A DNA stretch of 64,000 nucleotides from Planctomycetota bacterium (lineage in GTDB: Bacteria; Planctomycetota; UBA11346). Where the stretch lies: positions 77,988 through 141,987 of the forward strand of contig JACDEI010000003.1 of assembly GCA_013816485.1 (NCBI GenBank), given 5' to 3'. The first letter of the stretch is position 1, and the number at the start of each line of letters is the position of its first letter. The position numbers and the translations under genes are program-made. The notes beneath the pieces were generated by a model, which did not search any database, was not told where the DNA came from, and saw only the letters and a list, made by a program, of their open reading frames with translations. Shown in pieces: positions 2,135-45,779 of the stretch.

Positions 2135-2160
2135 GACAGATGCGACAGATGCGACAGATG
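2135..2160. repeat. Tandem 9-mer GACAGATGC x3 upstream of the eRF1-like gene
   Basis: Read directly: gacagatgc gacagatgc gacagatg. It ends 24 nt before ATG 2184. Confidence 0.85.
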
Positions 2161-2183
2161 ATTACACTACCAAAGGAGAAACG

Positions 2184-3338
2184 ATGACCTCACTCACGAA
2201 AGAATCGCTCACCGAACTTGTGGGCCCTCAATCGGCACCGTGTCTGTCACTGTACCAGCCGACGCATCGACGGCATCCAGAGAACCAGCAGGACCCGATA
2301 CGGTTTCGCAACCTCGTGCAGGAGCTCGAAGCATCGCTCCTACAGGCCTATCCTGAGAGCGCGACGCGATTGCTGCTGAAGCCATTCCACGCACTCGCGA
2401 ACGACCACGACTTCTGGAACCAGACGCTCGACGGACTAGCGCTACTGGGCACGCCGGACCTCTTTCGCGTGTTCCGCCTGCCACGTCCGGTCACCGAATT
2501 GGTGGTCGTGGCGGACAGCTTTCACCTCAAACCGTTGTGGCAGTTCCTCCAGTCGATCGAGCGCTATCACGTGCTCGGGTTGAGTCGCCACAAGATTCAA
2601 CTTTTCGAAGGGAATCGCGACGCCCTGGGAGAGGTCGAGCTGGCAGCCGGGGTGCCGCGCACAATCACCGACGCGCTCGGCTCGGAGCTCACCGAGCCGC
2701 ACCTGACGGTCACATCCCACGGGGGCGTTGGCGGATCGGGCAACGCGACGATGCACCATGGCCACGGCGGAAAGACCGACGAGGTAGACATCGACGCGAA
2801 TAGATTCTTCCGCTCAATTGACCGGGCGGTGCTGGAGCACCACTCGCGTCCCACCGGCCTGCCGCTGATCTTGGCAGCGCTACCGGAGCATCACCATCGT
2901 TTCCGCAGCGTCAGTCAGAATCCATTTCTGCTATCCGAAGGGATCACGGTCAATCCTGATGCCGTGACGAACGAAAAACTGCAAACGCTCGCTTGGCAGG
3001 TTGTCGAGCCGCAGTACGAGGCGCGCATCGCAACGCTGAAGAACGACTTCGAGCAAGCCAGTGCGACCGGGCGCGGCAGCGACAATCTACAGCAGATCGC
3101 CGAAGCCGCTGCCTCAGGGCGCATCGCCACGCTATTCATCGAGGCTGATCGTCCGATCGCTGGTCACCTCGATGAAGGGACCAAGAAGGTCGTCGGCGGT
3201 GCGCTGAGTAACCCACGAGTCGATGACGTGCTCGATGACCTGGGCGATCTAGTTGGCAAGAAGGGTGGCGAGGTCTTCGTCATTCCAGCGGCGAAGATGC
3301 CCACGCGCAAAGGCGCAGCCGCAATCTATCGCTACTGA
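2184..3338 (+). CDS. eRF1/Pelota-like protein (bacterial aeRF1-superfamily, 'baeRF'-type), 384 aa
   Basis: ATG 2184 lies behind AAAGGAGAA and is in frame with track ORF 2016..3338. The C-terminus (SGRIATLFIEAD...GGEVFVIPAAKMPTRKGAAAIYRY) resembles the end of eRF1/Pelota domain 3 (...GIAAILRY). The central HGHGGKTDEVDIDANRFFRSIDRAV resembles the GGQ loop plus following helix, but without the Q. Confidence 0.6.
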   Translation: MTSLTKESLTELVGPQSAPCLSLYQPTHRRHPENQQDPIRFRNLVQELEASLLQAYPESATRLLLKPFHALANDHDFWNQTLDGLALLGTPDLFRVFRLPRPVTELVVVADSFHLKPLWQFLQSIERYHVLGLSRHKIQLFEGNRDALGEVELAAGVPRTITDALGSELTEPHLTVTSHGGVGGSGNATMHHGHGGKTDEVDIDANRFFRSIDRAVLEHHSRPTGLPLILAALPEHHHRFRSVSQNPFLLSEGITVNPDAVTNEKLQTLAWQVVEPQYEARIATLKNDFEQASATGRGSDNLQQIAEAAASGRIATLFIEADRPIAGHLDEGTKKVVGGALSNPRVDDVLDDLGDLVGKKGGEVFVIPAAKMPTRKGAAAIYRY

Positions 3339-3340
3339 CC

Positions 3341-3400
3341 CAGCTCAATTCAACTCAACTCAGCTCAGTTCAGCTCAGCTCAACTCAACTCAACTCAACT
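3341..3400. repeat. Pentamer array (CARYT)x12 followed by A8, in the hpf leader
   Basis: cagct caatt caact caact cagct cagtt cagct cagct caact caact caact caact, then aaaaaaaa (3401-3408), AGGAG (3409-3413) and ATG 3421. Confidence 0.9.
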
Positions 3401-3420
3401 AAAAAAAAGGAGCAAGACTC

Positions 3421-3738
3421 ATGAAAATTCAAGTCAACACCGACAAGAACATTGCAGGGCACGAGGAACTCGTTGCCCAAGTAGAGGCTACGGTCAACAA
3501 ATCACTGAGCCGCTTCAGTGCGCACATCACGCGCGTGGAAGTTCATCTGAGCGACGAAAATGGCGATAAGAATGGCCAGAAGGACAAGCGGTGCGTAATG
3601 GAAGCCCGCCTTGAGGGGCGGCAGCCCACTGCGGTGACGTGCGAGGCGGCGACCCTGGCCCAGGCTGTCGCCGGGGCGGCGGACAAGTTGAAGAGCTCTA
3701 TCGAGAGCACGGTGGAGCAGCTCCGTGAGCATCGCTAG
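3421..3738 (+). CDS. hpf: Ribosome hibernation promoting factor / RaiA family, short form (105 aa)
   Basis: MKIQVNTDKNIAGHEELVAQVEATVNKSLSRFSAHITRVEVHLSDENG... has the length and beta-alpha-beta pattern of S30AE/HPF proteins. A strong SD precedes the ATG. Confidence 0.85.
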   Translation: MKIQVNTDKNIAGHEELVAQVEATVNKSLSRFSAHITRVEVHLSDENGDKNGQKDKRCVMEARLEGRQPTAVTCEAATLAQAVAGAADKLKSSIESTVEQLREHR

Positions 3739-3934
3739 CGTGTTGCGATGCTTTCCAAGAGCCCCCAATGCTCACGAAGAACAAGACCCATATTCGGCAC
3801 CGCTTGTCCGGCGAGCACAGCAGCGAGCGCGCTGTCACTAACAGCAGCCCGCCAGGTTGGGCGCGGCCTCGGTCACGGGACATTTTTAGGCTAGGCGTGG
3901 TCGCAGGAACTTGAAAAAAAAAGAGGACGCCGTT

Positions 3935-5827: not shown

Positions 5828-6701
5828 CGTGTGGCCGACCCACGTGGCCGTGGCTTGGCTGCTGGCCGTTGGGCTTCCGGCTGCGGAAGCCGCGGAAGAA
5901 GGGGTACCGAGGGATCACGCCCATCACCCATCAGGGGCGGAAGAGGCCGAACCGGTCGGTCCAAAGCTGCCGCAGGGTATGACGCTGGACGAGGTGCTCG
6001 ATCGCGCGGCCCAAGCGCCTCCCGACGGCTTCCCCGACGCGATTAATGATAATGCGATCTTCTCCTACGCAGTGCTCGACCAGTTCGAATATCGGGTCCC
6101 CAACCACGGGGACGAGCGCCTCGGGTGGGAAGGAATGGCGTGGATCGGCTACGATTACGACAGGCTCTGGATTAAGCACGAGGGTGAACGGTCGGTGGAA
6201 GGCTCAGAGCACGGCGAGACGGAAACCGATCTGCGCTACTCGCGATTGGTGACCGCCTTCTGGCACGCCCAGGGCGGAGTACGCTACGCCAACGAGTGGG
6301 CGGATGACGTTTACGCGGACACCTGGTCTGCCGTGATCGCACTGCAGGGCGTGGTGCCCTACATGGTCGAGGTCGATACCTCGCTGGCGCTCTCGGAAGA
6401 TGGTGACCTGTGGTTTGAAGCTGAGGGGGAATACGACCTGCGCGTGACGCAGCGCTTGGTTCTCCAGCCTCGGGCAGAGTTTTCCCTGTTCGCCCAGGAC
6501 ATTCCCGAGCGACGGGTGGGCGCTGGGCTCGGGCCTGTCGACGTGGACCTGCGCCTGCGCTACGAGGTCACGCGTCGTTTCGCGCCCTACCTGGGCATAC
6601 GCTACCACGTCACGGTGGGTGAGACCGCCGATCTGGTGGAGGCCGCAGGTGAGGAAACCGAGCAACTGGTTTTCCTTGGTGGTCTGCGGATCGCGTGGTG
6701 A
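5814..6701 (+). CDS. copB: Copper resistance protein B (outer-membrane CopB/PcoB family)
   Basis: It overlaps the copA stop by 14 nt and has a signal peptide. The C-terminal beta-barrel signature is VDVDLRLRYEVTRRFAPYLGIRYH...LGGLRIAW. Confidence 0.85.
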   Translation: MRITDVWPTHVAVAWLLAVGLPAAEAAEEGVPRDHAHHPSGAEEAEPVGPKLPQGMTLDEVLDRAAQAPPDGFPDAINDNAIFSYAVLDQFEYRVPNHGDERLGWEGMAWIGYDYDRLWIKHEGERSVEGSEHGETETDLRYSRLVTAFWHAQGGVRYANEWADDVYADTWSAVIALQGVVPYMVEVDTSLALSEDGDLWFEAEGEYDLRVTQRLVLQPRAEFSLFAQDIPERRVGAGLGPVDVDLRLRYEVTRRFAPYLGIRYHVTVGETADLVEAAGEETEQLVFLGGLRIAW

Positions 6702-6773
6702 GGCGTGGTGAGGTAAGTGTCCGATTCGACGACTGATACCAATCCGCGATCTATGACCCTCTCACGGGGAGAA

Positions 6774-6851
6774 TTAACCGCCGAGGGCACCGAGCACGCC
6801 GAGACGGACCGCACGGTATTTCTCGGTGTGCTCGGTGCCCTCGGCGGTTAA
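6774..6851. repeat. Long perfect hairpin downstream of copB (terminator-like palindrome)
   Basis: TTAACCGCCGAGGGCACCGAGCAC (6774-6797) pairs with GTGCTCGGTGCCCTCGGCGGTTAA (6828-6851), a perfect 24-bp stem. An inner CCGAGA/TCTCGG pairing is also present. Confidence 0.85.
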
Positions 6852-7150
6852 ATTAAATCGCCTTCCTGCATTCGTAGTCTTTTGATCACGTATTGGTATG
6901 ACGTCCGGACAGCGGAAAGGACTGCTCGTCGACCGGACGGAATGGTAATCCAGTAATCCATGGGCCATAGACCCCATGGATCATCATCTTGGTGGTAAGC
7001 ATGCGTCTTGATCGAACATGCATCGCAGCGTCGAATTCATCACCTCGACTGGCTGCCTGACTGGGCTCAAACCAAGAAAGTTTTTCACCCCCGGTGACGA
7101 GGATTTGCAGATTTTAACGTGTGAGTTCGCCTCTTCAGCACGGTTGTGGT

Positions 7151-8542: not shown

Positions 8543-8595
8543 GCGTGCGCTCAGGTAAGTCCCACGCAGTGCCAAGCAAAAGATAGGCTAAGCAG

Positions 8596-10556
8596 ATGCC
8601 AGTAATCTCCGACACCGCAGTGGTCGCTCAGACCACCGCGATGAATAACCATGCTCCGGCCGGTCGTATCTATACCTGCCCAATGCATCCCGAGGTGCAG
8701 CAGGATCATCCTGGGGCATGTCCCAAATGTGGCATGGCGCTGGAATTGATAGCGGGAGCGACGAGCCACCCCGAAGACGACAACGCTGAATTACGCGACA
8801 TGACCAGACGCTTCTGGGTGGGTCTGGCCTTGGCCGTACCAGTATTTGTGCTGGCCATGGCCCACGTCATTCCGGCGCTGGCTCGTCAGCCATGGGTTGA
8901 TGGCCTGACCAGCCGTTGGATCCAATTCTTGCTCACAATCCCGGTCGTCGCTTGGGCCGGATGGCCGTTCTTCGTCCGCGGCTGGCAATCGTTGAGGCAC
9001 TGGCACCTGAACATGTTTACCTTGATTGCCATCGGCGTGGGTGCTGCCTTTGGATTCAGCACGGTGGCGATGCTCCTGCCTGATCTGTTCCCGCTCACGA
9101 TGCAACATGATGGAAAAGTCGCGATCTATTTCGAGGCCGCCGCCGTCATCGTGGTGTTGGTGCTGCTCGGTCAGGTACTGGAACTGCGGGCGCGCAGCCG
9201 CACGGGCAGTGCCATCAAGGCACTGCTCAACTTGGCACCACCGACGGCGCGCCAGGTTGCGCCTGATGGTGATAACGTCGTTCCATTGGATCAGGTCAAG
9301 GTCGGTGACTGGTTGCGCGTGGTGCCTGGGGACAAGGTTCCGGTCGATGGAGTGGTGGTGGAGGGCCATTCGAGTGTTGAGGAATCGATGGTCACCGGTG
9401 AGCCGCTGCCGGTGGAGAAATCCATCGGCGAGCACGTGATCGGTGGCACGGTGAATGGCACCGGCAGCTTCGTCATGCGTGCGGAACGCATTGGTGCCGA
9501 CACCTTGCTCGGCCAGATCGTCGATCTGGTTGCCGAAGCCCAGCGCAGTCGCGCGCCCATCCAGGGCTTGGTCGATCGGGTCGCCGGTTGGTTCGTGCCG
9601 GCGGTGCTGGCAATCGCGCTGATCACCTTCGTTGTGTGGATGTGGATCGGACCGGAGCCGCGTCTGGCCCACGCCATCGTCAATGCGGTCGCGGTGCTCA
9701 TCATCGCTTGTCCGTGCGCGCTCGGCCTGGCGACGCCGATGTCGATCATGGTTGGCGTCGGCCGCGGGGCGCAGGATGGCGTGCTGATGAAGAACGCCGA
9801 AGCGCTCGAACGCTTGGAACACATCACCACCCTGGTGGTGGACAAGACCGGTACCCTGACCGAGGGAAAACCGCGGCTGATGGAGGTATTGCCGGCCGAG
9901 GGCATTTCCGCCGATGATCTTCTGCGTTTTGCCGCAGCCCTGGAACAGAACAGCGAACATCCACTGGCCGCTGCGGTCGTGCAGGGTGCGAAGGCGCGCA
10001 ACATCGCGAATACGCCGGTATCCGATTTCCGTTCAGTGACCGCCGGCGGCGTGGCCGGTACCGTGAACGGGCGTGCCGCGCTGATCGGCAAGCCGGCCTT
10101 CCTGCGTCAGGAGCACATCGGCGGATTGGAAACGCTCGAAGCCTCGAACCGGCGGGCAAAGTGGCTCACGTGAAGAAGCTGCGCGCCGCTGGTCAGCAGG
10201 TGGCGATGGCGGGTGATGGCATCAACGATGCGCCCGCCCTAAGCGAAGCCGACGTCGGCATCGCCATGGGCACCGGCACCGACGTGGCCATGCAAAGCGC
10301 GGGCATCACGCTGGTACGTGGGGATCTGCGCGGCATCGCCAAGGCCATCCGCCTCAGCCGCGCGACCATGCGCAACATCCGCCAAAACCTGTTCTTCGCC
10401 TTCGTCTACAACGCGCTGGGCATCCCGGTGGCCGCCGGCGTGTTGTATCCGGTGTTCGGCATGCTGCTCAGCCCGATGATCGCCGGAGCCGCGATGAGCC
10501 TGAGTTCGGTCTCAGTGATCGCCAATGCGTTGCGCTTGCGTCGCACCCGTTTGTAA
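8596..10556 (+). pseudogene. Copper-translocating P1B-type ATPase, disrupted by an internal out-of-frame deletion
   Basis: Track ORFs 8596..10173 and 10161..10556 are the two halves. Motifs present: YTCPMHPEV...CPKCGM, CPC ([13 protein letters not shown]), DKTGTLT and [10 protein letters not shown]. Only about 128 aa separate DKTGT from GDGIND, where about 195 are expected from family knowledge. The TGD hinge is missing, and the frames switch at about 10131-10165 (ctcgaagcctcgaa). Confidence 0.8.
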
Positions 10557-10583
10557 ATTGTGAGCCGGGGCGCGCGCCGGGAA

Positions 10584-10688
10584 GTGAACATAGGAACGGA
10601 GGAATGGAGGAAGGCTGAGAGCTAGGGAGAAGGTGGGATTTGCCGTTCCTCCTCCGTTTCTCCGTTTCTCCGTTCCTCTTGTTCAAGC
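10584..10688. repeat. Tandem-repeat palindrome (GGAACGGAG-type arms)
   Basis: The left arm gtgaacataggaacggaggaatggaggaagg faces the right arm ccgttcctcctccgtttctccgtttctccgttcctcttgttcaagc. The right arm shares CTCCGTTCCTCTTGTTCAA with element 17863-18022. Confidence 0.8.
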
Positions 10689-10731
10689 AGCGGTTTCTAA
10701 AGGGGACATAGCCCCTCGATTTCTTCTCCGA

Positions 10732-10763
10732 TCTCCGCGTCTCCGCGTCTCTGCGTCTTCTGT
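10732..10763. repeat. Tandem 8-mer TCTCCGCG x about 4
   Basis: tctccgcg tctccgcg tctctgcg tcttctg, read directly. I found no complementary arm. Confidence 0.8.
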
Positions 10764-10941
10764 TCGATTTCCTCGGTCAGTCCCACGATCGGATGCGCTC
10801 AAGCCCTGACTGGTTTCCGGTGCAGGTTGGGGTGGCATATCACCATCCGTTCGGGCTATCCCGGGTTTGGGTAAACACGGCCCTGGACGGTGGGTACCAG
10901 TGGTCAGACCATTCGCGCCCCCACGTCACAGGAACCCACCG

Positions 10942-12177
10942 ATGCGCCACCTGCTGTCCTGCTCCCTCATCGCCATCGCGGGCATAGCGTCCGCCGCCGA
11001 CAACTTGGTGCTGCACACCTTTACCAAGCAGCGCCTGAGCGACCAGTTCTTCAGCGAGGGCTCGGCCGTCGGCGACTTCAACAAGGATGGCGTCATGGAC
11101 GTGGCCTCTGGGCCGTATTGGTACGCGGGGCCGGACCTCACCAGCAAACACACCATCTATCCGCCGAAGCCATTCGATCCGAACAGCTACAGCGATGCTT
11201 TCTTGATGTTTGCTCATGACCTGAACGGCGACGGCTTCGATGACGTGGTGGTGGTTGGCTGGCCGGGCAAGGATGGCGTGTGGTTCGAGAATCCAGGCAA
11301 CGACATGCCGTGGCCGCGCCACGTGGTGATGGACGTGGTCGACAACGAATCGGCGATGTACGTCGATCTCACGGGTGACGGCAAGCCGGAGATGTTGTGC
11401 AACCGCGGTGGATTCGTCGGCTACTACGCGGTCGACTGGAGCGATCCCAAGAAGGCGTGGTCCTGGAAGTCGGTGAGCGAGAAGGGGGCGTGGCACAAGT
11501 ACACCCACGGCATCGGTCACGGCGACCTCAATGGCGACGGTCGCAGCGACATCCTGCTGCGCGAAGGCTGGTGGGAGCAGCCCGCGTCGCTCGCCGGCGA
11601 TCCGGTGTGGAAGTTCCACGCACAGGATTTCGCTGATGGCACCGACAAGGGCGGAGGCGCACAGATGCTGGTCGATGATGTCGACGGCGACAAACGCGCG
11701 GATGTCATCACCAGCCTCAAGGCCCACGAGTGGGGCCTGGCGTGGTTCCAACAGCAGGCCGACGGCACCTTCAAGCGCCACCTCATCATCGGACCGAAGC
11801 CCGAGGACAGTCCCTACGGCGTGGCATTTTCGCAACCCCACGCGCTGGCGCTGGCCGACATGGATGGTGACGGCCTGAAGGACATCATCACCGGCAAACG
11901 CTGGTGGGCGCACGGTCCCAAGGGCGATCCCAATCCCAATGATCCGGCGGTGCTCTACTGGTTCCGCCGCGAGCAGACCGCCACCGGCGTGTTGTTCGTG
12001 CCGCACCTGGTCGACGACGATTCGGGCGTCGGCACGCAGGTCACCATCGGCGATGTCACCGGCGACGGAAAAACCGACATCATCGTGGGCAACAAGAAGG
12101 GCACTGCGGTGTTCCGCTCTATGGCCAAGACGGTCGATGATGCGGCGTGGAAGGCCGCGCAGCCGGTGAGGAAGTAG
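10942..12177 (+). CDS. Secreted FG-GAP/VCBS repeat protein (7-bladed beta-propeller type), 411 aa
   Basis: Signal peptide MRHLLSCSLIAIAGIASAA. There are seven Ca-loop motifs: DFNKDGVMDV, DLNGDGFDDVVV, DLTGDGKPEM, DLNGDGRSDILL, DVDGDKRADVIT, DMDGDGLKDIIT, DVTGDGKTDIIV. ATG 10942 is in frame with the track ORF. Confidence 0.85.
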   Translation: MRHLLSCSLIAIAGIASAADNLVLHTFTKQRLSDQFFSEGSAVGDFNKDGVMDVASGPYWYAGPDLTSKHTIYPPKPFDPNSYSDAFLMFAHDLNGDGFDDVVVVGWPGKDGVWFENPGNDMPWPRHVVMDVVDNESAMYVDLTGDGKPEMLCNRGGFVGYYAVDWSDPKKAWSWKSVSEKGAWHKYTHGIGHGDLNGDGRSDILLREGWWEQPASLAGDPVWKFHAQDFADGTDKGGGAQMLVDDVDGDKRADVITSLKAHEWGLAWFQQQADGTFKRHLIIGPKPEDSPYGVAFSQPHALALADMDGDGLKDIITGKRWWAHGPKGDPNPNDPAVLYWFRREQTATGVLFVPHLVDDDSGVGTQVTIGDVTGDGKTDIIVGNKKGTAVFRSMAKTVDDAAWKAAQPVRK

Positions 12178-12182
12178 ACCAC

Positions 12183-12282
12183 GGACTACAGGCTACAGGC
12201 TACAGGCGACAGGGTTGTGGGCTGCGGTTGCGTCGCTGAACTGGCGTGAGCTGCCTGACCTGTGGTCAGTGGCCTGTAGTCC
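12183..12282. repeat. Imperfect palindrome with CTACAGG heptamer arms
   Basis: ggactacaggctacaggctacaggcgacagg (from 12183) faces cctgacctgtggtcagtggcctgtagtcc (ending 12282). Confidence 0.7.
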
Positions 12283-12455
12283 GGGGTCTGCTGACAGGCC
12301 GTGGGTTGTCCGTGAGATCGGCTAATCTGGACAATCGTCGCTCGCATACGCTTGCGGCGCGTGTGAGTGGCGGTCGCCGCCAACGCCCAGCCCGGTGGTT
12401 GGTAAATCAAGCGAACGCGGTCAATCACTGCTCCAAATTGTACGAAGGATCTGCC

Positions 12456-16826: not shown

Positions 16827-16996
16827 ATACCAATCCTCCATCGGATGAAACGGGAGGAAAGGCAGATCATACCGCAGAGGTCGCAGAGCCCGCAGAGCCC
16901 GCAGAGGGGAGATTTCCGCTCTGCGCTCGCTGCGCCCTCTGCGGTTAGATTGGCTGTCGGTTGTCGGTTGTCGGTTGAGTGATGGAGAATTGGTAT
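16827..16996. repeat. Composite palindrome: 16-bp outer inverted repeat enclosing a CGCAGAGCC tandem-repeat hairpin and GGTTGTC x3
   Basis: The outer ATACCAATCCTCCATC (16827-16842) faces GATGGAGAATTGGTAT (16981-16996). The inner accgcagaggtcgcagagcccgcagagcccgcagagggg faces ccgctctgcgctcgctgcgccctctgcggt. ggctgtcggttgtcggttgtcggttg is at 16952-16977. Confidence 0.8.
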
Positions 16997-17862: not shown

Positions 17863-18022
17863 GCCCAATGGTGTAAAGCTAAGCCTTTTGAGACAGCACC
17901 TTGAACAAGAGAAAACGGAGGAACGGAGGTGAAGGCAGGAAAAATGCCCATCGATCCCTGTTTTTCTCCGTTCCTCCGTTCCTCTTGTTCAATCTGATTG
18001 GCTTGGCTTTACGCCATTGGGC
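17863..18022. repeat. MITE-like palindromic element with conserved 22-bp inverted termini and GGAACGGAG tandem-repeat inner arms
   Basis: The termini are GCCCAATGGTGTAAAGCTAAGC (17863-17884) and GCTTGGCTTTACGCCATTGGGC (18001-18022). The inner arms are ttgaacaagagaaaacggaggaacggagg and ctccgttcctccgttcctcttgttcaa. The same termini bound element 45570-45779. Confidence 0.8.
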
Positions 18023-19352: not shown

Positions 19353-21844
19353 AAGCGCGTCGCCGGCCCGAGGTGCTTGCTCCGGTCGGTTCTCCGGACT
19401 GTCTGCCAGCGGCGGTAGCCGGTGGGGCCGATGCGGTGTTCCTGGGCTTGCGTCATTTCAATGCCCGCGGTCGGGCAGAAAACTTCCGCAAAGCCGAACT
19501 CGCGCATCACGTCGCCTATTTGCATCATCACCACGTGAAGTGCTACGTGGTGATGAACACGCTGGTCCATGACGACGAGTATCCCAAGGCGCTCGATCTC
19601 GCCGCCGCGGCCCACGCGGCGAACGTCGACGCGGTGATCATCCAGGATCTTGGCTTGTGGCGTGCGTTGGCGCGTGAACTGCCGGGACTCAAGCGCCACG
19701 CGTCGACTCAGATGACCATCCATCATCCGAGTCAAGTGGCGGTGCTCGCCGCGCTCGGTGCGGAGCGCGTGATCCTGGCGCGTGAGTTATCGTTGGCGGA
19801 GGTCGCCGCCTGCACCCGTGAAGCTGAGCGTCTGGGCATCGAGACCGAACACTTCGTGCATGGCGCACTGTGTTACGCCTTCAGCGGCCAATGCCTGATG
19901 TCGAACTTCGCGGGATGTCGTTCGGCCAATCGCGGGACGTGTGCGCAAAACTGCCGCTTCGATTATACGAGTTCGGAGTCCGGGGTCCGGGGTCCGGAGT
20001 CGGTTGACCCTGGACCCCGGACTCCGGACTCCGGACGCATCGAGACCGAGATCTCGATGAAGGACTTCTCGCTCATCGCACGTATCGGAGAACTCGCGGA
20101 TACCGGCGTCGCCTCGCTCAAGATCGAAGGCCGGCTCAAGGGTGCGGACTACGTCTACACCACCAGCCGCGTCTACCGCGCGGCGACTGAGGCGTGGGCC
20201 GCGGGCAAGAAGTTCGATCCGACCTGGGCGCGCGAACTGCTGAAGGATGTCTTCGCCCGGGCGCAGACCGAGGCGCCGCTGGATGGTGTCTATGGATCCG
20301 CGTCGCGTCTGCATCGCTATGAACCGGAACAGGACCGCGCGCCGGATGCGACGCTGGTGTCCGCTGATCGTCGTCGTGGTGAAGTGGTGGTGCAGAGCCG
20401 CGTGCCCATCACCGCCGGTCAGGGCTTCAGCTTCAGCGTCGGTTTCTTCAATGGTGGATTCCTGGTCATCGGTGCGGATGCGTTGGGTGGTGATCGTTGG
20501 CGGCTCAAGGTGCGTATCGCCGAACACGGGCCACGTCTGCCAGCAGAGACGCCGTTGTTCCGAAACGCCAATCACGAGCGCAAACGTGAGGCCGCCACCG
20601 CGATGGCAGAAGTTCCCGTGCAGGTGGTGGCGGAACCGACCATTGCCTTGGCGCTCCAAGTCAGTGCCCATGTTGGCGCGCCATTGTCGGTCAGCGCGCG
20701 TGCTGCGGATGGTCGTTCAGTGGAGGTCGCCAGCGATACGGCGTTGACCGTCGCTACCGGTCGTCCGGCGGATGAAACCCTGATGCGGGAGAAACTCGGC
20801 GCGTTCGGTGGCACGCCGTGGCATCTCGGTGAGCTGGTGGTGAGCACGGATGGCCGCGCGTTCGCTCCAGCGTCGTTGCTCAAGGATTTGCGCCGTCGTC
20901 TGGTCGACGGTTTGGCGGCGTTGCCCGCCCCCACGATCGCTCCGACCTGGACCCCACCGGAACCTGGGACACCACGCCGGCGAACCACAGCGGTCTGGGT
21001 TGCGGTCGGCAGCATCGCTGCGGGCGAAGCCGCGCTCGCGCACGGTGCGTCAGCGGTGTGGCTGGATGATCCGACCATCGACTGGTGGGGGACCTCGGCT
21101 CCGGCGATGCCAGCCCCTGATGCGCGCTGGTGGTTGCGTCAGGCCGCCACCGCACCGGTCTCGCCGCATCTCGCCCGCTGTGGCTGGGGTGTGGTCGCCG
21201 GACATCTGGGAGTATTGGCGGCGGCGCGCACCGCCGGACTGCCCGCGATCGCGGACTTGTTTTGTAACACCTACTCGACCGAGACCCTGCTCTCCCTGCG
21301 TGACCTGGGGGCGCAGGCGGCGGTCATCAGTCTGGAATGCAGCGGTCGTGAGATCGCGCGCCTCGCCGCACGCTGCGCCACGCTGGCGGATGCCGGAGTC
21401 GCGGTTCCCGCTCTAGCGCTGATCGCGCATGGGCGTCTGCCGGCGATGCTCACGCGTCAGGACCACGGCCTCGCGGTCGGCGCCACACGCACCATCACCG
21501 CTGTGGCACGTGATGGTGGTCTGCCCTATGACCTGCAACGTCGTCGCCATGGCGACACGGTGGTCTGGGAAGGACGTCGCCTGTGCGCGCCGGAACACGT
21601 CGCGCCGACGGCCGGACTGGTGGACGCATGGGTGTTGGAATTGGCGGATCTGGAACCGGCACAGGTGGCAGAGATGACCGCGGCGTATGTCGCGCTCGCT
21701 GGTGGCGGAGGAGACGCGGCAACGATCACCGCGTTAGCTGCCGCACGGTCACCGCACGGATTGTTCACCGGGCATCTGGCGCAGGGCAGTCGTGAACTCG
21801 ACTTGGTGGTCGAACGCATGGAAGCGGGCGAAACAGTGGGCTGA
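19349..21844 (+). CDS. Peptidase U32 family protein, long form (831 aa)
   Basis: The U32 signature EHFVHGALCYAFSGQCLMS and SLKIEGRLKGADYV are present. The N-terminus PEVLAPVGSPDCLPAAVAGGADAVFLG is typical of the family. A long C-terminal extension is present. Confidence 0.85.
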   Translation: MKARRRPEVLAPVGSPDCLPAAVAGGADAVFLGLRHFNARGRAENFRKAELAHHVAYLHHHHVKCYVVMNTLVHDDEYPKALDLAAAAHAANVDAVIIQDLGLWRALARELPGLKRHASTQMTIHHPSQVAVLAALGAERVILARELSLAEVAACTREAERLGIETEHFVHGALCYAFSGQCLMSNFAGCRSANRGTCAQNCRFDYTSSESGVRGPESVDPGPRTPDSGRIETEISMKDFSLIARIGELADTGVASLKIEGRLKGADYVYTTSRVYRAATEAWAAGKKFDPTWARELLKDVFARAQTEAPLDGVYGSASRLHRYEPEQDRAPDATLVSADRRRGEVVVQSRVPITAGQGFSFSVGFFNGGFLVIGADALGGDRWRLKVRIAEHGPRLPAETPLFRNANHERKREAATAMAEVPVQVVAEPTIALALQVSAHVGAPLSVSARAADGRSVEVASDTALTVATGRPADETLMREKLGAFGGTPWHLGELVVSTDGRAFAPASLLKDLRRRLVDGLAALPAPTIAPTWTPPEPGTPRRRTTAVWVAVGSIAAGEAALAHGASAVWLDDPTIDWWGTSAPAMPAPDARWWLRQAATAPVSPHLARCGWGVVAGHLGVLAAARTAGLPAIADLFCNTYSTETLLSLRDLGAQAAVISLECSGREIARLAARCATLADAGVAVPALALIAHGRLPAMLTRQDHGLAVGATRTITAVARDGGLPYDLQRRRHGDTVVWEGRRLCAPEHVAPTAGLVDAWVLELADLEPAQVAEMTAAYVALAGGGGDAATITALAAARSPHGLFTGHLAQGSRELDLVVERMEAGETVG
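19974..20033. repeat. 60-nt near-perfect palindrome of GTCCGGRG units lying in frame inside the U32 peptidase CDS
   Basis: The left arm cggagtccggggtccggggtccggagtc (19974-20001), loop ggtt and right arm gaccctggaccccggactccggactccg (20006-20033) pair at 25/28 positions. The segment encodes ...SESGVRGPESVDPGPRTPDSG... Confidence 0.85.
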
Positions 21845-26492: not shown

Positions 26493-26692
26493 GGTCCGAG
26501 CGGTCCGAAGGGTCCGAAGGGTCCGAAGGGTCCGAAAAGTCCTGAAGACACCGGTGTATTGGACCGTTCGTACCCTTCGTACCCTTCGTACCCTTCGTAC
26601 CCTTCGTACCCTTCGTACCCTTCGTACCCTTCGTACCCTTCGTACCCTTCGTACCCTTCGACCCTTCGTACCCTTCGACCCTTCGTACCCCC
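26493..26692. repeat. Asymmetric tandem-repeat palindrome: GGTCCGAAG x5 facing CCCTTCGTA x about 13
   Basis: The left array is 26493-26537 and the right array 26573-26687 (10 perfect 9-mers plus 8-mer variants). The units are reverse complements except for one base. The element starts 10 nt after the MBL stop. Confidence 0.9.
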
Positions 26693-27536: not shown

Positions 27537-27632
27537 GTTTTCGGTTCTCTGACTTTCGCTTCTCTGACCTTCGCCGCTGCGCGGCGACCGCCCTTCGGGC
27601 GGTGACGGCTGCGCCGTCAGGATCAGAGAACC
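27523..27632. repeat. Tandem 15-16-mers (TTTCGGTTCTCTGAS x3) plus a GC-rich UUCG stem-loop closed by GGTTCTCTGA/TCAGAGAACC
   Basis: tttcggttctctgag ttttcggttctctgac tttcgcttctctgac overlaps the CDS end. CCGCCCTTCGGGCGG is at 27588-27602 and gtcaggatcagagaacc at 27616-27632. The layout is terminator-like, between convergent genes. Confidence 0.75.
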
Positions 27633-27640: not shown

Positions 27641-28411
27641 TCAGGGGGTCTGGCGACCCCCCGACAACGCGGCTGCGCCGCTGCCCCCCGTGTGGTCAGG
27701 GATGTTTTTCTTTGTTGTTGTCGCGTATTCGCCCGGGCCCGGTGTGCGCGCGAGGCACACCAGATCCACGCGTTTTGCTCCGGCTTGGCGCAGTGCAGCG
27801 GCGGCGGCGCTGGCGGTCGCGCCGGTGGTGATGAGGTCGTCGACCAGCACCACGTAGGCGGGCGCGGGTTTCACGCAGCGGAAGAGGCCGACGACGTTGG
27901 CGCGGCGTTCGGCGGGTGAGAGGCGGTGCTGCTCGGCGCCGAGGCGGGTGGTGGTCAGGAGGTGGCGCAGGGGCAGGTGCCAGCGGCGTGCGCCGGCTCG
28001 GGCGAGGGCACTGCCGAGATGTGGTCCCGGGCGGCGTCCCGGAGATGCTGGTACCGGCACCACCACGCCGCCGTTCGGTGCGTCGTCAGGTGGATCGGGC
28101 AGCAGATCGCCGAGTGCACGCACCGCTGCCGGTCGGCCCACCGTCTTCGCCAGACCGACGAGGTGGGCGATACCGCCGTGGTACGGGTGATCGACACGCA
28201 CCTGCTGGAGATGCGCCAGTCCGGCACCATCGCAGGCGCCACAACGCGCGTCGAGGTCACGGCGGGCCGCACCGCACCATGGACATGGATGTTCGAGGCG
28301 TGGCAGCGCGTGGATGCAGGTGGGGCACAGGCCTGGTCCGCCCGCGATCTGGCAGCCTGGGCACAACGACGGCAGCAGCAGATCGAGCACCGCGCTGACC
28401 AGCGTACGCAC
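27641..28411 (-). CDS. comF: ComF-family phosphoribosyltransferase-like protein (256 aa)
   Basis: N-terminal Cys pairs are CPGC...CPTC and CPWC...CGAC. The PRTase motif is VVLVDDLITTGATASAAAAAL. GTG 28411 lies 2 nt after the ABC gene's stop codon (...TGAACGTG...). The longer track ORF would overlap that gene by about 200 nt. Confidence 0.7.
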   Translation of the reverse strand: MRTLVSAVLDLLLPSLCPGCQIAGGPGLCPTCIHALPRLEHPCPWCGAARRDLDARCGACDGAGLAHLQQVRVDHPYHGGIAHLVGLAKTVGRPAAVRALGDLLPDPPDDAPNGGVVVPVPASPGRRPGPHLGSALARAGARRWHLPLRHLLTTTRLGAEQHRLSPAERRANVVGLFRCVKPAPAYVVLVDDLITTGATASAAAAALRQAGAKRVDLVCLARTPGPGEYATTTKKNIPDHTGGSGAAALSGGRQTP

Positions 28412-32164: not shown

Positions 32165-32179
32165 CGAGTTGTTGGCCGG

Positions 32180-32211
32180 TTCAGTGCCAGTTCAGTGCCA
32201 GCTCAGTGCCG
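32180..32211. repeat. Tandem 11-mer TTCAGTGCCAG x3 between convergent genes
   Basis: ttcagtgccag ttcagtgccag ctcagtgccg. The third unit supplies the stop codon of the minus-strand gene 32203..32760. Confidence 0.85.
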
Positions 32212-32810: not shown

Positions 32811-32877
32811 TCCGCCGATGTCCGCCGATGTCCGCCGATGTCCGCCGATGTCCGCCGATGTCCGCCGATGTCTGCCG
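32811..32877. repeat. Tandem 10-mer TCCGCCGATG x5 plus 2 variants in a divergent promoter region
   Basis: There are five perfect units (32811-32860), then tctgccgatg and tctgccg. The array lies between the start of 32203..32760 (-) and kinase start 32988 (+). Confidence 0.9.
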
Positions 32878-32987
32878 ATGTCTGCCGTCATATCGCGCGT
32901 GTGATGAGCAGCGTTAGGCCCGACCTGCCACAGCCTCGAAATCAGGGTAGCCAAGCAGGCTGGGCAGCGCACGATTACCGCCAACCC

Positions 32988-34094: not shown

Positions 34095-34144
34095 TGGCCA
34101 CGAGCTACGGACCACAGGTCCGTTGGCTGACGTCGATTGCGAAC

Positions 34145-34200
34145 CTGTAGTCTGAGTCTGTAGCCCGTAGCCAGTAGCGAGTAGCGAGTAGCCCGTAGCC
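34145..34200. repeat. Degenerate heptamer array (GTAGCSN)n between convergent genes
   Basis: ctgtagtctgagtctgtagcccgtagccagtagcgagtagcgagtagcccgtagcc, read directly. Confidence 0.75.
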
Positions 34201-40787: not shown

Positions 40788-41003
40788 CCGCACCTCGGGA
40801 AAAAGCGGCGTCGGCGAGAACGCCGGAGCCGCGCGTGGACGCGGGAAGGTAGAGGGCATGCCGGCATCTCCAACTGCCGGGATGGGTAGCTGGCAGCGCC
40901 GCCTGCCACATTCCCGCCGGAGGCTGCCAAGCGTCCATACGGCGGTGACGGCGCACATCCGAGCATGGACGACGCGCATCCGGCCCGCTATTCCATGAGC
41001 GCG

Positions 41004-42422
41004 ATGCGGCATCCCATGAACCTCCTGGTCCCCATGCTGCTGGCGCTGGCTGCCCCAGGCACCGCCGCGGTCTATGGTCTGCCGGAACCGCCGACGCCCG
41101 CGCCGACACCACAACTGTGGTTCAACTTCTCCGACGACTTCCTGGGCATGGCGGTGCTCAACACCGACGATTATCGCACCGTCAACATCACCATCGGTGG
41201 GCGCTGGGACGGTTGGCGCTTCGCCGCTGACGCCAGCATGCTGACCAACCGCGGACGTGATGGCACCACGCCGAGCCGCACCGATGAGCTGACCTACAGC
41301 CTGGGCTACGCCGTGCTCGACCGTGAGCGCGAAGAGACTTGGAAGGCGTTGCTGACGCTGGGCATCGGCGGTCGCACCTATGGCGATCTCGGCGGCGAGT
41401 CGGTGCAGAACCACATCCACGAGACCTTCGGTTACAAGACCGTGTACCTGCCCTACGACTCGGAAGAGGGCACTGACGGATTCGCCTTCTTCCACACCCG
41501 CATGACTGGCGTGCCAGCGTGGGAATACCAGTTCAGTGGTCCGTTCGGAAAATGGGCGGCGCAGATCGAGGGTGGAGGGCTGGTCAGCACCGGCGAGGAA
41601 ATCCAATTGTATGGCGGTGCCAACCTGGTGTCGCTGGGCACCGATAGCATGGCGTGGATCGGTGCGCGTTATCAGTGGCACAACGACACCTACCTGACGC
41701 GTACCTCGCAGATCGTTGGCGAGAAGGAAACCGGCTGGTGGTTGGTGGTCGGCCTCAGCCGCACGCCCGGCGTCCTGGTCACGGCGAGTCTGAATCCGGA
41801 TCGCGAAACGGTTGCCGGCACGCTTGGCCTGACGTTCGACACGGCAGCCAAGCCCAATCACGAGGGCGCAGGATATCGCGTCGATAATTCGCTGAAATTT
41901 TTCCCAGGCGGCGGCAACACTGGCCTCGACATCCGTTGGCAGCCCGGGTGGTTGGCGGAGATGTCCCTCAGTCCACGCGACGTGCTGGTGCTCTGTTACG
42001 ACTTCGGTGCGGTCACGGCCTACGAGGACTGGCAGGATTGTTACGTCGGTTTCGATCAGTTGGTGATGGGTTGGGCACCGACCTGGGAGATCAAAACACT
42101 CAAACGTCTACACTGGAGTATCGCCGGGTATCTCGCTGGCGGTGTGCGGTTGGAGCGCATCCACGAGGAAGACGGCACACCACGTTTTGTCGAAGATGAC
42201 GTGCAGGTCGCGGCGGTAGCACAAGGTGAGCTCGCGATGCGCTTCGGCTGGCGATTCAGCGATAAAGGTGACACGTGGCTGGATCAACTTCGCCTCGGCG
42301 TTGGCGTCGACGGTTGGTTGCCCTGGCCCAGCGCGACAGCACGTAACGGCGCGGATGTCGACGAGTACATGGAACCGGGAGTCTCCGCTCACTTGTCCTT
42401 CGGCCTAACCGTCGATTGGTGA
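41004..42422 (+). CDS. Secreted beta-barrel-like hypothetical protein (possible LpxR/DUF2219-like N-terminal motif)
   Basis: The signal-like N-terminus is MRHPMNLLVPMLLALAAPGTAAV. FNFSDDFLGMAVLNTDDYRT recalls the LpxR-family N-terminus. Alternating-residue strands are present and the protein ends in W. The start is uncertain (40995, 41004 or 41016). Confidence 0.45.
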   Translation: MRHPMNLLVPMLLALAAPGTAAVYGLPEPPTPAPTPQLWFNFSDDFLGMAVLNTDDYRTVNITIGGRWDGWRFAADASMLTNRGRDGTTPSRTDELTYSLGYAVLDREREETWKALLTLGIGGRTYGDLGGESVQNHIHETFGYKTVYLPYDSEEGTDGFAFFHTRMTGVPAWEYQFSGPFGKWAAQIEGGGLVSTGEEIQLYGGANLVSLGTDSMAWIGARYQWHNDTYLTRTSQIVGEKETGWWLVVGLSRTPGVLVTASLNPDRETVAGTLGLTFDTAAKPNHEGAGYRVDNSLKFFPGGGNTGLDIRWQPGWLAEMSLSPRDVLVLCYDFGAVTAYEDWQDCYVGFDQLVMGWAPTWEIKTLKRLHWSIAGYLAGGVRLERIHEEDGTPRFVEDDVQVAAVAQGELAMRFGWRFSDKGDTWLDQLRLGVGVDGWLPWPSATARNGADVDEYMEPGVSAHLSFGLTVDW

Positions 42423-42520
42423 GCAGACGGTGAGCAGACGGTGACCAGACGGCGCGCGCGAGCGGGGTCTTGAGCCGCTGCCTGCGCCCACCACCGTGTG
42501 TGCTGCGTAGGAGCCCAACC

Positions 42521-43507: not shown

Positions 43508-43511
43508 AAGA

Positions 43512-43598: not shown

Positions 43599-43643
43599 TG
43601 CGTGTGGCGGCTGCATGATGTGGCGGCGGCCCGCCCGACCAAG

Positions 43644-45221
43644 TCAGTTCGCCGCGTCGCCTTGCGGTTCCGCTTGCGGGACCGGAACCGGTGTTGGCGC
43701 GGTACCCGGTTTCTTGCTGTCGCCGTCGCTCTTGGCACCCGGTAACGAGCTGGCGTCGGGGATGATCACCTGGCTGAAGAGGGCATTGAGCTGGTTGGTC
43801 ACCGCTTCGGCCTCGGTGTCGGCACCGTTGGCGTCCAGACGCAGGGCGGAGTTCGCGGCGGGATTCACCGCGACGACCAGGGCGGCCATACGCTGGTAGC
43901 GGCCTTCGCGGTAGGAATAGCGCAGAATCTTCGCCTGGCCCTTCGCCAGCGTGAGCTTCTCCTCAGCGATGCTCATGAAGTCCGCCTTGCCCTGCGCCGA
44001 GCTGACCTGGCTGGCCCAGATGCCGGCGAAATCGTTGAGGTCGGTCTGATTGCGCAGGATCTTGGCGGTGATGTAGGCGGTGTCGCTGGTGGGATCGATC
44101 CAGGTGGCGTCGCCGCCGATCGGATCAGCGCGGTTCCATCCGGGCGGCGTCGGGATGGAAATGCCGGAGAGGGTGTCCTTGAACTCGCCTTGCAACGAAC
44201 CGGCGCCGCTGCCTGCCTTCGCCGGCTCCATGCCGAGTTCGCGACGGATGCCGTTGTGGTTGTTGTCGGCGCGGAAGCCGGCCTGGTAGGCGCGGTAGCT
44301 CAGCTCGCGTGAACGTGGTAGCACTTCAGCGTTGGCGTCGGCCCAGCGGCCGAGCTTGTAATACCCTTCGGCATCGCGCCAGCCGATCGCGGCGAAACGA
44401 TCCTGGAACTCTTGCCCCAGCGCTTCGCCGCGCGGTCGCCACTGGCCGCCGTAGAATTCGAGATCCCAGCGACGCATGTATTTTGCCACGTCCTCGGCGC
44501 CGGCACCGCCGACCTGACGGATCCATGCGGCGCTGCCGATGCGGGCCGCGCGCGGGATGTCGCGCAGCAGGTCCTGGCACCAGCCCATGGCTTTGAGGAT
44601 CAACGCGACGTCTTTGCCGGCCTCGGCCTTGGCCACCACGTCGTCGACCACCTGCGAGATGATGTTGTCGGCCGCCACCAACCAGAACTCGCGGTTGCCC
44701 TGCACCATACCCATCTCGCGTGCCCAGTTCGCGGCGGCGAGCCGGGCGTCGAAATTCTCAGCGGGGATGCCGGCGATCTTCTTGTCGATGATCTGCTGGT
44801 CGGACGGCGCGGTCTCGGCAGCACTGATGGCGAAGCGCTGCACGTTGTTGGCGACGGTGAAACGTCCGAAGACGTAGAGGTTGTCGCCGTCGATGCGCGT
44901 GCGCCAGAGTTCCATCGGTCCGCTGGCGACCACCTTCGGCATGTTGTAAAACGACACCACGCCGTTGGCGACGCGACCGAGCTTGGCCGCCACCACCACG
45001 TCCTTGTCGTGCAGGAAGCCGGGGTCAGAGAGATCTTCCGGCTGTGCCAGCAGGTAGCTGTTGTCCTGGTAGACCACATAGGTGCGTTCTTTGCCCTGCA
45101 GCGTCATGCCAAAGGTCTCTTTCCACGGCTTGTCGTGGACCGGCGCATGCTGGATCGGGTCGACGGCAGCCAGGCCACCGACGAAAAGAAGCGAGGTGAC
45201 GAGCAGGCGGTATGAACGCAT
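43644..45221 (-). CDS. Secreted hypothetical protein (525 aa)
   Basis: ATG 45221 with signal peptide MRSYRLLVTSLLFVGGLAAV. The C-terminal tail is low-complexity (PGAKSDGDSKKPGTAPTPVPVPQAEPQGDAAN). I recognise no motif. Confidence 0.6.
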   Translation of the reverse strand: MRSYRLLVTSLLFVGGLAAVDPIQHAPVHDKPWKETFGMTLQGKERTYVVYQDNSYLLAQPEDLSDPGFLHDKDVVVAAKLGRVANGVVSFYNMPKVVASGPMELWRTRIDGDNLYVFGRFTVANNVQRFAISAAETAPSDQQIIDKKIAGIPAENFDARLAAANWAREMGMVQGNREFWLVAADNIISQVVDDVVAKAEAGKDVALILKAMGWCQDLLRDIPRAARIGSAAWIRQVGGAGAEDVAKYMRRWDLEFYGGQWRPRGEALGQEFQDRFAAIGWRDAEGYYKLGRWADANAEVLPRSRELSYRAYQAGFRADNNHNGIRRELGMEPAKAGSGAGSLQGEFKDTLSGISIPTPPGWNRADPIGGDATWIDPTSDTAYITAKILRNQTDLNDFAGIWASQVSSAQGKADFMSIAEEKLTLAKGQAKILRYSYREGRYQRMAALVVAVNPAANSALRLDANGADTEAEAVTNQLNALFSQVIIPDASSLPGAKSDGDSKKPGTAPTPVPVPQAEPQGDAAN

Positions 45222-45432
45222 CCGTGGACTCCAGAACGGGATGATCGCTGGCAAGATATAGCCGTGCCGACGCGGTGACACAAGCCAGGATCGACCGCAT
45301 GGTTGTGACGCATTGATGGGGGCCGTGACTTTGTCCTTGCCCCCCTGGGGGTGCTCCATACTTTCCCGCCCTCGCAACGCGGACCATGCTCGCGCGGCGA
45401 CCAACGGTCGCGATCTGACCGCTACCGATGCT

Positions 45433-45508
45433 GGGGGTATAGCTCAGTTGGTAGAGCGTCTGCATGGCATGCAGAAGGTCAGGAGTTCGAATCTCCTTAC
45501 CTCCACCA
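45433..45508 (+). tRNA. tRNA-Ala (anticodon GGC), CCA encoded
   Basis: GGGGGTA acceptor stem with a G3:U70 pair. The anticodon stem-loop is TCTGC ATGGCAT GCAGA and the T-loop is GGTTCGAATCC-like (AGGAGTTCGAATCTCCT). Length 76 nt. Confidence 0.92.
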
Positions 45509-45569
45509 GACGACGGACCCTCGGCTCGCATAGCGCCGGGGGTCTTTCGTTTCTGGTTGTTCGGGGTTC

Positions 45570-45779
45570 GCCCAATGGCGTAAAGCCAAGCTCGATTCGA
45601 AAGGCAAGACAGCTTGCCACAGAGGCCACAGACCCCACAGAGGCCACAGAGGCCACAGAGCGGAAAGCGGAAAAACAGAGGGCTTGCTGGCTTAGCTCTG
45701 TGCTCTGTGGGGTCTGTGGGCTCTGTGGCTAGGTTTTCTGCCTTTTAGTTTTTCTTCGCTTGGCTTTTTGCCATTGGGC
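45570..45779. repeat. Second MITE-like palindromic element: the same 22-bp inverted termini, with CCACAGAGG tandem-repeat inner arms
   Basis: The termini are GCCCAATGGCGTAAAGCCAAGC (45570-45591) and GCTTGGCTTTTTGCCATTGGGC (45758-45779). The inner arms are ccacagaggccacagaccccacagaggccacagaggccacagag and ctctgtgctctgtggggtctgtgggctctgtgg. TTC is found on both flanks. Confidence 0.8.

Follow-up and report, generated by a model that had tools for sequence, protein, structure and literature searches.

In this study, we analysed a 64,000-nt stretch of an uncultured planctomycete genome (Planctomycetota bacterium, lineage UBA11346; assembly GCA_013816485.1, contig JACDEI010000003.1, positions 77,988 to 141,987 of the forward strand; hereafter the window), in which arrays of short tandem repeats, several of them forming the arms of long palindromes, lie mostly between genes. 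The G+C content ranges from 55 to 68% across 2-kb windows of the stretch, and the encoded proteins are typical of Planctomycetota, including DUF7133/HEAT proteins, Ser/Thr kinases, CstA, ClpB, a TonB-dependent receptor and a copper-resistance cluster. The nearest genomes in GTDB are uncultured Planctomycetota metagenome-assembled genomes (MAGs) with 74-88% protein identity, and the same species was found in desert-soil, hypolith and salt-lake metagenomes as well as in four NCBI metagenome assemblies (GCA_020063705, GCA_020063985, GCA_020064105 and GCA_020064125).

The gene map comes from our own codon-usage model, with approximate gene borders. Arrays were detected with Tandem Repeats Finder (TRF), inverted partners with a repeat search and a partner score of our own, and hairpins by folding as single-stranded DNA against 200 dinucleotide shuffles. 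Related genomes were searched among the GTDB representatives, which do not include the source species; comparison loci (numbered L) were metagenome contigs and 620 kb from a sample of MAGs chosen by one repeat and belonging to species other than the source. Depths were compared in the source metagenomes, using Logan contigs. The features of the window are collected in Table 1.

Table 1. Repeat arrays and palindromes of the window, with the most stable hairpin of each site and its z-score. [quoted passage not shown]
Position	Strand	Feature	Repeat units or ends	Context	Hairpin (z)
2134-2160		Plain direct array	CGACAGATG x3	24 nt upstream of ATG 2184, or in-frame N-terminal extension	z +1.4
3344-3400		Plain pentamer array	(CTCAA/CTCAG) x11	Between the stop of a baeRF-family gene and the start of a hibernation-factor-like gene	No hairpin
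6693-6713	+	Direct array	GCGTGGTGAG x2	Spans copB TGA stop	
6736-6899		Predicted type-2 MITE	Ends TACCAATCCGCGATC / GATCACGTATTGGTA	TGA on both sides	Core 6774-6851 (-11.5)
10584-10688		AACGGAGG-armed palindrome copy	Degenerate left end, right arm of three units		10584-10688 (-5.0)
10730-10767		Lone right arm, ACGCGGAG family	CTCCGCGT x3 + CTTCTGTTCGA		
12173-12292		Inverted heptamer arrays	(CTACAGG)n ... (CCTGTRG)n	6 nt past stop codon	12173-12292 (-5.5)
16827-16996		Predicted type-2 MITE	Ends TACCAATCCTCCATC / GATGGAGAATTGGTA	TGA on both sides	Core 16866-16950 (-6.0)
17863-18022		IS4-type MITE	22-bp ends GCCCAATGGYGTAAAGCYAAGC	Encloses complete AACGGAGG palindrome 17901-17992	17895-17995 (-7.2)
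19969-20036	+	In-frame palindrome	GRGTCCG heptamers	Within U32 peptidase gene	19969-20036 (-6.6)
26493-26690		Inverted arrays	GGTCCGAAG x5 versus ACCCTTCGT x14	One C.T mismatch per unit	26493-26620 (-6.2)
27522-27632	+	Triplicated last four codons plus stop	CTTTCGGTTCTCTGA	Pairs with single inverted copy TCAGAGAACC at 27623-27632	27522-27632 (-5.0)
32175-32210	-	Direct array	11-mer x3.3	Repeats minus-strand gene end including TGA	No hairpin
32811-32887		Plain 10-mer array	TCCGCCGATG x7.7	Between divergent genes	No hairpin
34105-34200		Heptamer array, CTACAGG family	GTAGCCN; short left partner CTACGGACCACAGG		Weakly self-complementary (-0.7)
42418-42452	+	Direct array	GGTGAGCAGAC x3.2	Spans TGA stop of gene 40965-42422	
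45570-45779		IS4-type MITE	22-bp ends; core units CCACAGAGG	TTC duplication; 62 nt after tRNA-Ala	45600-45745 (-8.8)

An earlier inspection of the letters alone (the original prediction) had listed 15 sites with such arrays, mostly intergenic, most of the larger ones facing an inverted array. A TRF array was present at 15 of 15, and two more were found beyond that list (6693-6713 and 42418-42452). The window holds 20 arrays with a TRF score of at least 45 and a period of 5-16, against a mean of 0.75 and a maximum of 3 in first-order random sequences of the same composition and none at the same criteria in 50 kb of E. coli. The intergenic location was also borne out in the window, since in a separate count 15 of 19 arrays fell in the 10.9% outside gene calls (binomial p ~1e-11). 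The proposed facing arrays and hairpins stood in part. Nine sites form long hairpins with z-scores of -5 to -11.5, and at none of them was any of the 200 shuffles as stable; whole spacers with these sites reached z-scores as low as -12.6, and those of spacers lacking such sites were scattered about 0. The hairpin at 17895-17995 is additionally enclosed by outer 22-bp arms at 17863 and 18022. By contrast, hairpins are lacking at 2135-2160, 3341-3400, 32180-32211 and 32811-32877, which are direct arrays (z between +0.5 and +1.8 or near -0.8); only a right arm is present at 10732-10763, and 34105-34200 is barely palindromic. An inverted partner for the array at 2134-2160 was searched for and none was found.

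Different studies, with at least four NCBI assemblies and some ten sequencing runs among them, gave the same loci with identical flanks, and most of these loci are spanned by single contigs of independent assemblies with zero mismatches. Because they are recovered in independent assemblies of several studies, they are not an assembly artefact. Copy number is unreliable in the array at 26563-26690, where Logan contigs break inside and one NCBI assembly is 54 nt shorter, and the central loop of 45570-45779 lies outside all Logan contigs.

First, two palindromes are linked to an insertion sequence (IS). The elements at 17863-18022 and 45570-45779, 160 and 210 bp long and non-coding, carry GCCCAATGGYGTAAAGCYAAGC at both ends of each, which makes four occurrences in the window against 0 expected. 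This 22-bp end is present in 23 metagenome contigs; a search of GTDB genomes, whose representatives lack the source species, gave one unrelated match only. Matching ends of 21-22 bp enclose a 1.46-kb IS in one contig (L019, 196-1652), and the IS is also found in L006. Its open reading frame (ORF) of 448 aa matches PF01609 (DDE_Tnp_1, E = 9e-18), and the transposase scores 165 bits against a cut-off of 115 with the NCBIfam IS4 family model NF033592. In L012, L014, L018, L022 and L023 the ends bound non-coding elements of 150-250 bp, L023 being a homologous copy of 45570-45779 in another metagenome. Direct target duplications of 3-4 bp were present in six of the eight copies read (AAC, GGCG, TCC, GGGA, AGAC and TTC) and were imperfect at 17863-18022 and at the L019 IS. 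The insertions, which include MITEs from metagenomes of bog, mat and soil, sit within GGGGC-N3-4-GCCCC palindromes whose loop bases are duplicated. Judging from eight insertion sites only, small GC hairpin loops appear to be the targets of the IS4-family element across these metagenomes. In addition, 17863-18022 is absent at the orthologous L102 spacer, which measures 85 bp there versus 281 bp in the window. Its end has a depth of 276 versus 14; 45570-45779 is likewise of high copy, with an arm depth of 600-800 versus 10. Judged by these sequence features, both are classed as MITEs of an IS4-family IS, whose transposase would presumably mobilise them in trans. Four subfamilies of this MITE hold four different iterated cores.

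Three further observations concern the ends and targets of the IS4-family element. A short GC hairpin, CAGGGGGTCTGGCGACCCC, at 27642-27660 reaches a depth of 110-139 versus 9-15 in the source metagenomes, being multi-copy there; it resembles the GGGGC-N3-4-GCCCC insertion palindromes, and it may represent a REP-like (repetitive extragenic palindromic) target family. In two low-GC contigs (Ga0099364; L005 2189-2210 and L025 1647-1668), the 22-mer overlaps what, by eye, is an apparent tRNA 3' end, so that IS4-type ends may be linked to tRNA 3' regions or the sequence may be reused unrelatedly. In a bog contig, the IS4-family IS is present in full directly beside an ISL3-family transposase gene (L006 143-2828), the two forming a small IS cluster.

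Second, the elements at 6736-6899 and 16827-16996 share another kind of terminus, TACCAATNC..../....ATTGGTA, of 15-16 bp, and a TGA duplication is present in both copies. Their cores differ. The core at 6774-6851 has 38-bp arms of ..CCGAG 9-mers, and that at 16866-16950 is built from CCGCAGAGN units, with GGTTGTC x3 after it. In the source metagenomes both elements have many copies; 6736-6899 reaches a depth of 40-85 versus 12 and matches 5-7 other contigs. With their TACCAAT ends and TGA duplication, they are assigned to a second MITE type.

Third, several palindrome families stand free of such shells. The arm TTGAACAAGAG(RAACGGAG)2, shared by 10584-10688 and the core of 17863-18022, occurs at 74 loci in GTDB genomes, nearly all of them within five related MAGs. 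Complete palindromes of 72-234 bp make up 66 of the copies and fall into loop-sequence subfamilies; 59 of these 66 have two units per arm, and the rare exceptions are one-sided. AGGCAG was tried as the defining end of the AACGGAGG arms and rejected, being enriched (15% versus 0.8%) but not universal. Families of like plan are TCGAACAGGAG(ACGCGGAG)n, to which 10730-10767 belongs, TCGAACACAGAG(CACCAGAG)n and TGACATGGAG(GACCGGAG)n. The MITE cores and the free-standing AACGGAGG, ACGCGGAG and CACCAGAG families have one arm plan, a short terminus plus two to five 8-9-mers ending in C[ACG]GAG. Across the 620-kb clade survey, 207 of 515 arrays had an inverted partner, and 41 canonical units clustered into 8-9-mers ending in C[ACG]GAG, GTCCG-containing 7-9-mers and CTACAGG. 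The unit had been thought to be specific to nearly every locus; the shared 22-bp ends, the TACCAAT ends, the 74 AACGGAGG loci and the few unit vocabularies contradict this.

These elements also occur inside one another. A ACGCGGAG element lies within the loop of a AACGGAGG element in L032 and L066, and a AACGGAGG element lies inside the IS4-type MITE at 17863-18022. Insertion into hairpin loops would be the simplest explanation for the same architecture with different units.

In two orthologous loci (L047 1103-1752 and L052 312-820), AACGGAGG arms exactly flank a gene for a 144-aa GxxExxY / PDDEXK_3 nuclease (TIGR04256, PF13366). The gene is located between rtcA and rtcB, with an arm GGAGG 5 nt before its ATG, and near it are duplicated pieces of the rtcA 5' end plus arm. 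This nuclease was considered as a general autonomous partner of the AACGGAGG elements and rejected, only one orthologous locus being present in the 620 kb.

Fourth, inverted pairs of GTCCG and CTACAGG arrays would form a separate, array-only class, which is found at many loci and has no conserved ends or loops. Pairs of GTCCGAT, GTCCGGAA and CTACAGG recur in the MAG loci. At the site orthologous to 12173-12292, a MAG of 80% nt identity has a like array with another copy number. The in-frame palindrome at 19969-20036 lengthens a variable loop of the U32 peptidase by 18 residues, and three orthologues have only a short loop at this place; a search of solved structures with this peptidase gave no match. 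The arms of this palindrome are multi-copy elsewhere (depth 150-390 versus 10-17). The array family of 26493-26690 has six or more other loci, and its copy number varies among assemblies. Many further contigs carry copies of the arrays at 19971-20036, 26561-26665 and 45600-45745, set there in unrelated flanking sequence. The arrays at 6736-6899, 16919-16973, 19971-20036, 26561-26665 and 45570-45779 match many contigs of the same metagenomes and show a 3- to 60-fold excess depth.

For the array-only pairs at 12173-12292, 19969-20036, 26493-26690 and 34105-34200, we entertained the idea that, instead of transposing as units, they were formed at breaks or hairpin tips through a sequence-specific process of repeat addition or fold-back copying. 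The same unit would lengthen each 3' end, and joining of the two ends would follow. Such a process would account for the same unit at many loci and for the lack of conserved termini, loops and target duplications; it would also fit the independent copy numbers of the arms, their constant polarity and the native-sequence palindrome at 27522-27632. We hold it to be a long shot. If true, it would provide a mechanism for the heptamer arrays of Xanthomonas, Nostoc and Beggiatoaceae.

Unit number changes within the species. Although its assemblies show no more than 0-4 substitutions per 2.4-6.7 kb relative to the window, exact whole units have been gained or lost in six arrays. One 9-nt unit is missing at 16890, in the left arm of 16827-16996, in seven of nine assemblies; two extra heptamers (+7 nt each, at 34144 and 34172) are present in six of eight; one unit less is found at 32860 (-10 nt) and at 32189 (-11 nt), each in one of eight assemblies; one unit more (+10 nt) is found at 6693 in three of six; and the array at 26563 is changed by -54 nt in one assembly. 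All of these polymorphisms are one-armed, and the copy numbers of the two arms are weakly correlated (r = 0.26, 21 paired arrays), which agrees with independent slippage and speaks against templated or compensatory co-variation. Thus, the strain comparison yielded the unit-number polymorphism that had been anticipated and not the co-variation of arms, and compensatory slippage, which had been offered as a cause, is not supported. Slippage is the presumed mechanism of the unit changes.

Taken together, the pattern in this uncultured Planctomycetota genome is probably composite, with selfish palindromic DNA as one part and replication slippage as the other. Structured mobile palindromes, namely two IS4-family MITEs, two TACCAAT MITEs and the free-standing AACGGAGG, ACGCGGAG and CACCAGAG families, would insert in one another's loops, so that different cores come to lie within the same shell, with loop targeting as the likely cause of the nesting. 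Slipped-strand gain and loss of whole 7-15-nt units would then be frequent and independent in each arm, and would also duplicate native sequence where this is harmless, in spacers and across stop codons. Purifying selection would confine the elements to intergenic DNA, one in-frame insertion being tolerated in a protein loop, and the elements themselves would be neutral. Copy number, terminal repeats, target duplications, an IS partner, presence or absence at an orthologous site, nesting, unit polymorphism and arm independence are demonstrated.

Several points weigh against this composite. In the fetched loci, the AACGGAGG-type families yielded neither an autonomous partner nor a target duplication, a search for empty AACGGAGG sites with joined flanks found none, and neither an IS nor any other element with TACCAAT ends was found. 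The array-only families have no terminal repeats, and to call them mobile elements is an assumption. Slippage alone leaves the iterated arms of so many independent families unaccounted for; the two-unit state of the AACGGAGG arms is inherited and not formed anew, and the downstream inverted native copy at 27522-27632 is not a product of simple slippage. In addition, the length difference of the longest array could be an assembly collapse, multiple mapping inflates the excess depth inside arrays, and the MAG sample was picked via one repeat and drawn from other species.

An alternative is that every palindrome was formed on the spot through a local mutational process, by hairpin-templated expansion, fold-back template switching or compensatory slippage, so that the shared architecture reflects a process and not descent, as the original prediction had argued. 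One case in its favour is 27522-27632. The array at 27522-27573 arose in place, because its unit copies the final four codons of the gene together with the stop, and this native triplication is accompanied by the inverted 10-nt copy; the L103 orthologue has the same final residues once only and no downstream inverted copy. Gene ends are tandemly duplicated including the TGA in four of 38 genes of the window (6693-6713, 27522-27573, 32175-32210 and 42418-42452) versus three of 396 in related MAG loci, both arms of 45600-45745 contain the variant unit CCACAGACC in mirrored position, and unit polymorphism is pervasive. Against this, nearly all palindromic loci share near-identical arms with many further loci, transposon ends with target duplications mark four of them, and the polymorphisms are one-armed with nearly uncorrelated arm copy numbers. 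Of the argument for a process, the whole-unit changes and the in-place array at 27522-27573 were retained, and the exclusion of spread was not, given the dispersed multi-copy families. We consider construction of each palindrome in place unlikely.

The hairpins could also be kept by selection as elements of RNA, for instance as factor-independent terminators or to stabilise 3' ends, with repeat arms tolerated since any register pairs; a transcript-level role had been suggested earlier. Many are situated 3-60 nt from stop codons or between convergent genes, their stems are very stable, and a hairpin with this unit type persists at the site orthologous to 12173-12292 in the MAG of 80% nt identity. 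However, among the AACGGAGG copies between co-oriented genes (n=38), G:T and A:C mismatches were symmetric (19 versus 20 and 21 versus 15), showing no strand bias. The contexts of AACGGAGG copies were near the baseline (tandem 38, convergent 9 and divergent 6 versus 176, 60 and 64), with median distances of 65 nt (stop codon) and 73 nt (next start). Terminator-like sites were not in excess (16, 5 and 11 versus 13.5, 10.6 and 7.2 in shuffles) and only two of them, 10701-10716 and 45705-45728, touched the loci, and no canonical intrinsic terminator, a GC-rich stem-loop with a U-run, was found at the loci. Copies also occur between divergent genes and inside a coding sequence, and close species are without the elements at orthologous sites. 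At the gathering threshold, Rfam matched only two tRNAs in the window, and at E<=1 it added only far-sub-threshold matches resembling miRNA precursors, as expected of a generic long hairpin. One metatranscriptome contained 5% of the words, with contigs from relatives of 92-97% and no informative ends. The data thus give no support to an RNA-level role for the hairpin set as a whole, in which no sign of selection was found; an individual hairpin may act as a terminator or stabiliser. Selection for RNA elements is quite improbable as the general explanation.

The iterated units might instead be iterons, bound by a transposase, recombinase or nucleoid protein and kept by selection. This would suit the few conserved vocabularies (..C[ACG]GAG, GTCCG.. 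and CCTGTAG) that run across families and species, the exact two units per arm of most full AACGGAGG copies, and the arms that flank the GxxExxY (PD-(D/E)XK) nuclease gene in both orthologous copies. Yet no candidate binding protein is linked to the units save at that one locus, unit numbers are free (2 to 14) in other families and between strains, and the L019 IS has no iterated arrays beside its ends. We find iterons a very doubtful explanation. That short-read assemblers made or inflated the arrays is hardly credible: Logan contigs do break at several arrays and the one array differs by 54 nt between assemblies, but the same arrays and flanks return in independent assemblies and runs, with short arrays spanned without a mismatch.

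The palindromes of the window are an unusual variant of known bacterial repeat classes and no new kind of system; real novelty, if any, would lie in the spread of the array-only families. Like MITEs, the elements are small, non-coding, intergenic and multi-copy, with variable internal tandem repeats, and the IS4-type loci share the terminal repeats of a full IS, target duplications of 3-4 bp and presence or absence at orthologous sites. Unlike in MITEs, the interior is not derived from the IS and consists of a palindrome of iterated 7-9-mers that differs among copies of one shell, and the elements of the window nest in each other's loops. BrickBuilt of Porphyromonas gingivalis is a MITE with an internal minisatellite (PMC4596501). 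It contains one direct 23-nt array, in contrast to the inverted arrays here.

Intergenic heptamer arrays are found in other bacteria as well, such as the GGGGAYT arrays of Nostoc, and cyanobacteria possess short tandemly repeated repetitive (STRR) sequences. In Xanthomonas, 70-75 convergent pairs of GGGAATC heptamers, capable of forming stem-loops, are 89-93% intergenic, their array length varies between close relatives and the mechanism of their spread is not known (PMC4692102, Rehm et al. 2015). Beggiatoaceae contain intergenic arrays of the heptamer TAACTGA, also with no known spreading mechanism (PMC4679880). The array-only loci match the Xanthomonas-type pairs in that one unit recurs at many intergenic loci, often in convergent pairs and without conserved flanks. 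The differences are that several unit families coexist here (GTCCG-type 7-9-mers, CTACAGG and ..CNGAG 8-9-mers), that the units are not G-quadruplex-forming, having no G-runs of three or more in register, that many arrays are within true MITE shells, and that strain-level unit polymorphism is documented directly.

The original prediction had recognised no REP sequence, bacterial interspersed mosaic element (BIME), enterobacterial repetitive intergenic consensus (ERIC) or CRISPR, and this held, with no match to these classes and none in Rfam either. GTAG- and CGTC-tagged REPs have been reported in Planctomycetes (PMC3733652, PMC3116915). Similar to REPs, BIMEs and REPINs (paired REP hairpins), the elements are abundant extragenic palindromes, often in inverted pairs, and GTAG is present in each unit of the 3' arm of the CTACAGG family, only as part of CCTGTAG. 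REPs, in contrast, are single imperfect palindromes of 20-40 bp with one unpaired tag, whereas tandem 7-9-mers, arms of up to 50 nt and variable loops are found here. Membership of REP/REPIN was rejected accordingly. As to a REP-associated tyrosine transposase (RAYT) gene, there was no transposase-like Pfam match among the 27 window proteins scanned. CRISPR was rejected too, as the units are contiguous without spacers and no cas domains occur in the window proteins scanned. IS1397 and ISKpn1 insert in enterobacterial palindromic units, and ISPpu9 and ISPpu10 in the REPs of Pseudomonas putida. Like them, the IS4-family element and its MITEs occupy hairpin loops and duplicate loop bases; they belong to another IS family, and their targets are not a characterised REP family. 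A search of the literature on Planctomycetes repeats found no description of these elements.

These findings suggest that a process-like pattern can come from several related families of selfish palindromes that nest and then stutter by slippage. They document variable number tandem repeats (VNTRs) that are polymorphic at strain level within a population of uncultured Planctomycetota and can serve as strain markers, and offer a multi-family example for the unsolved spread of identical short-unit arrays to many intergenic sites. In addition, such loci break short-read assemblies, and their copy numbers in MAGs are not to be trusted.

Some neighbouring genes deserve mention. Directly upstream of the largest array is a metallo-beta-lactamase-fold gene (25533-26483), for which the public annotation of the same contig has a precomputed match to PF23023 (Anti-Pycsar Apyc1). 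At 2016-3738, a bacterial archaeo-eukaryotic release-factor-like gene (baeRF family 3), the pentamer array and a ribosome hibernation factor-like gene (Ribosomal_S30AE) follow one another, and the pairing of the two genes suggests a function in ribosome rescue or dormancy. The copper P-type ATPase at 8596-10556 is divided into two overlapping ORFs (8596-10173 and 10161-10556), and its L002 orthologue has about 226 nt more at the ORF junction; the window copy looks like a frameshifting deletion, either a pseudogene or an assembly error. Finally, a giant ORF of more than 3,900 residues (52272-63998) continues past the window end and carries a 450-nt tandem repeat at 52918-54121, with 2.7 copies of 76% identity.

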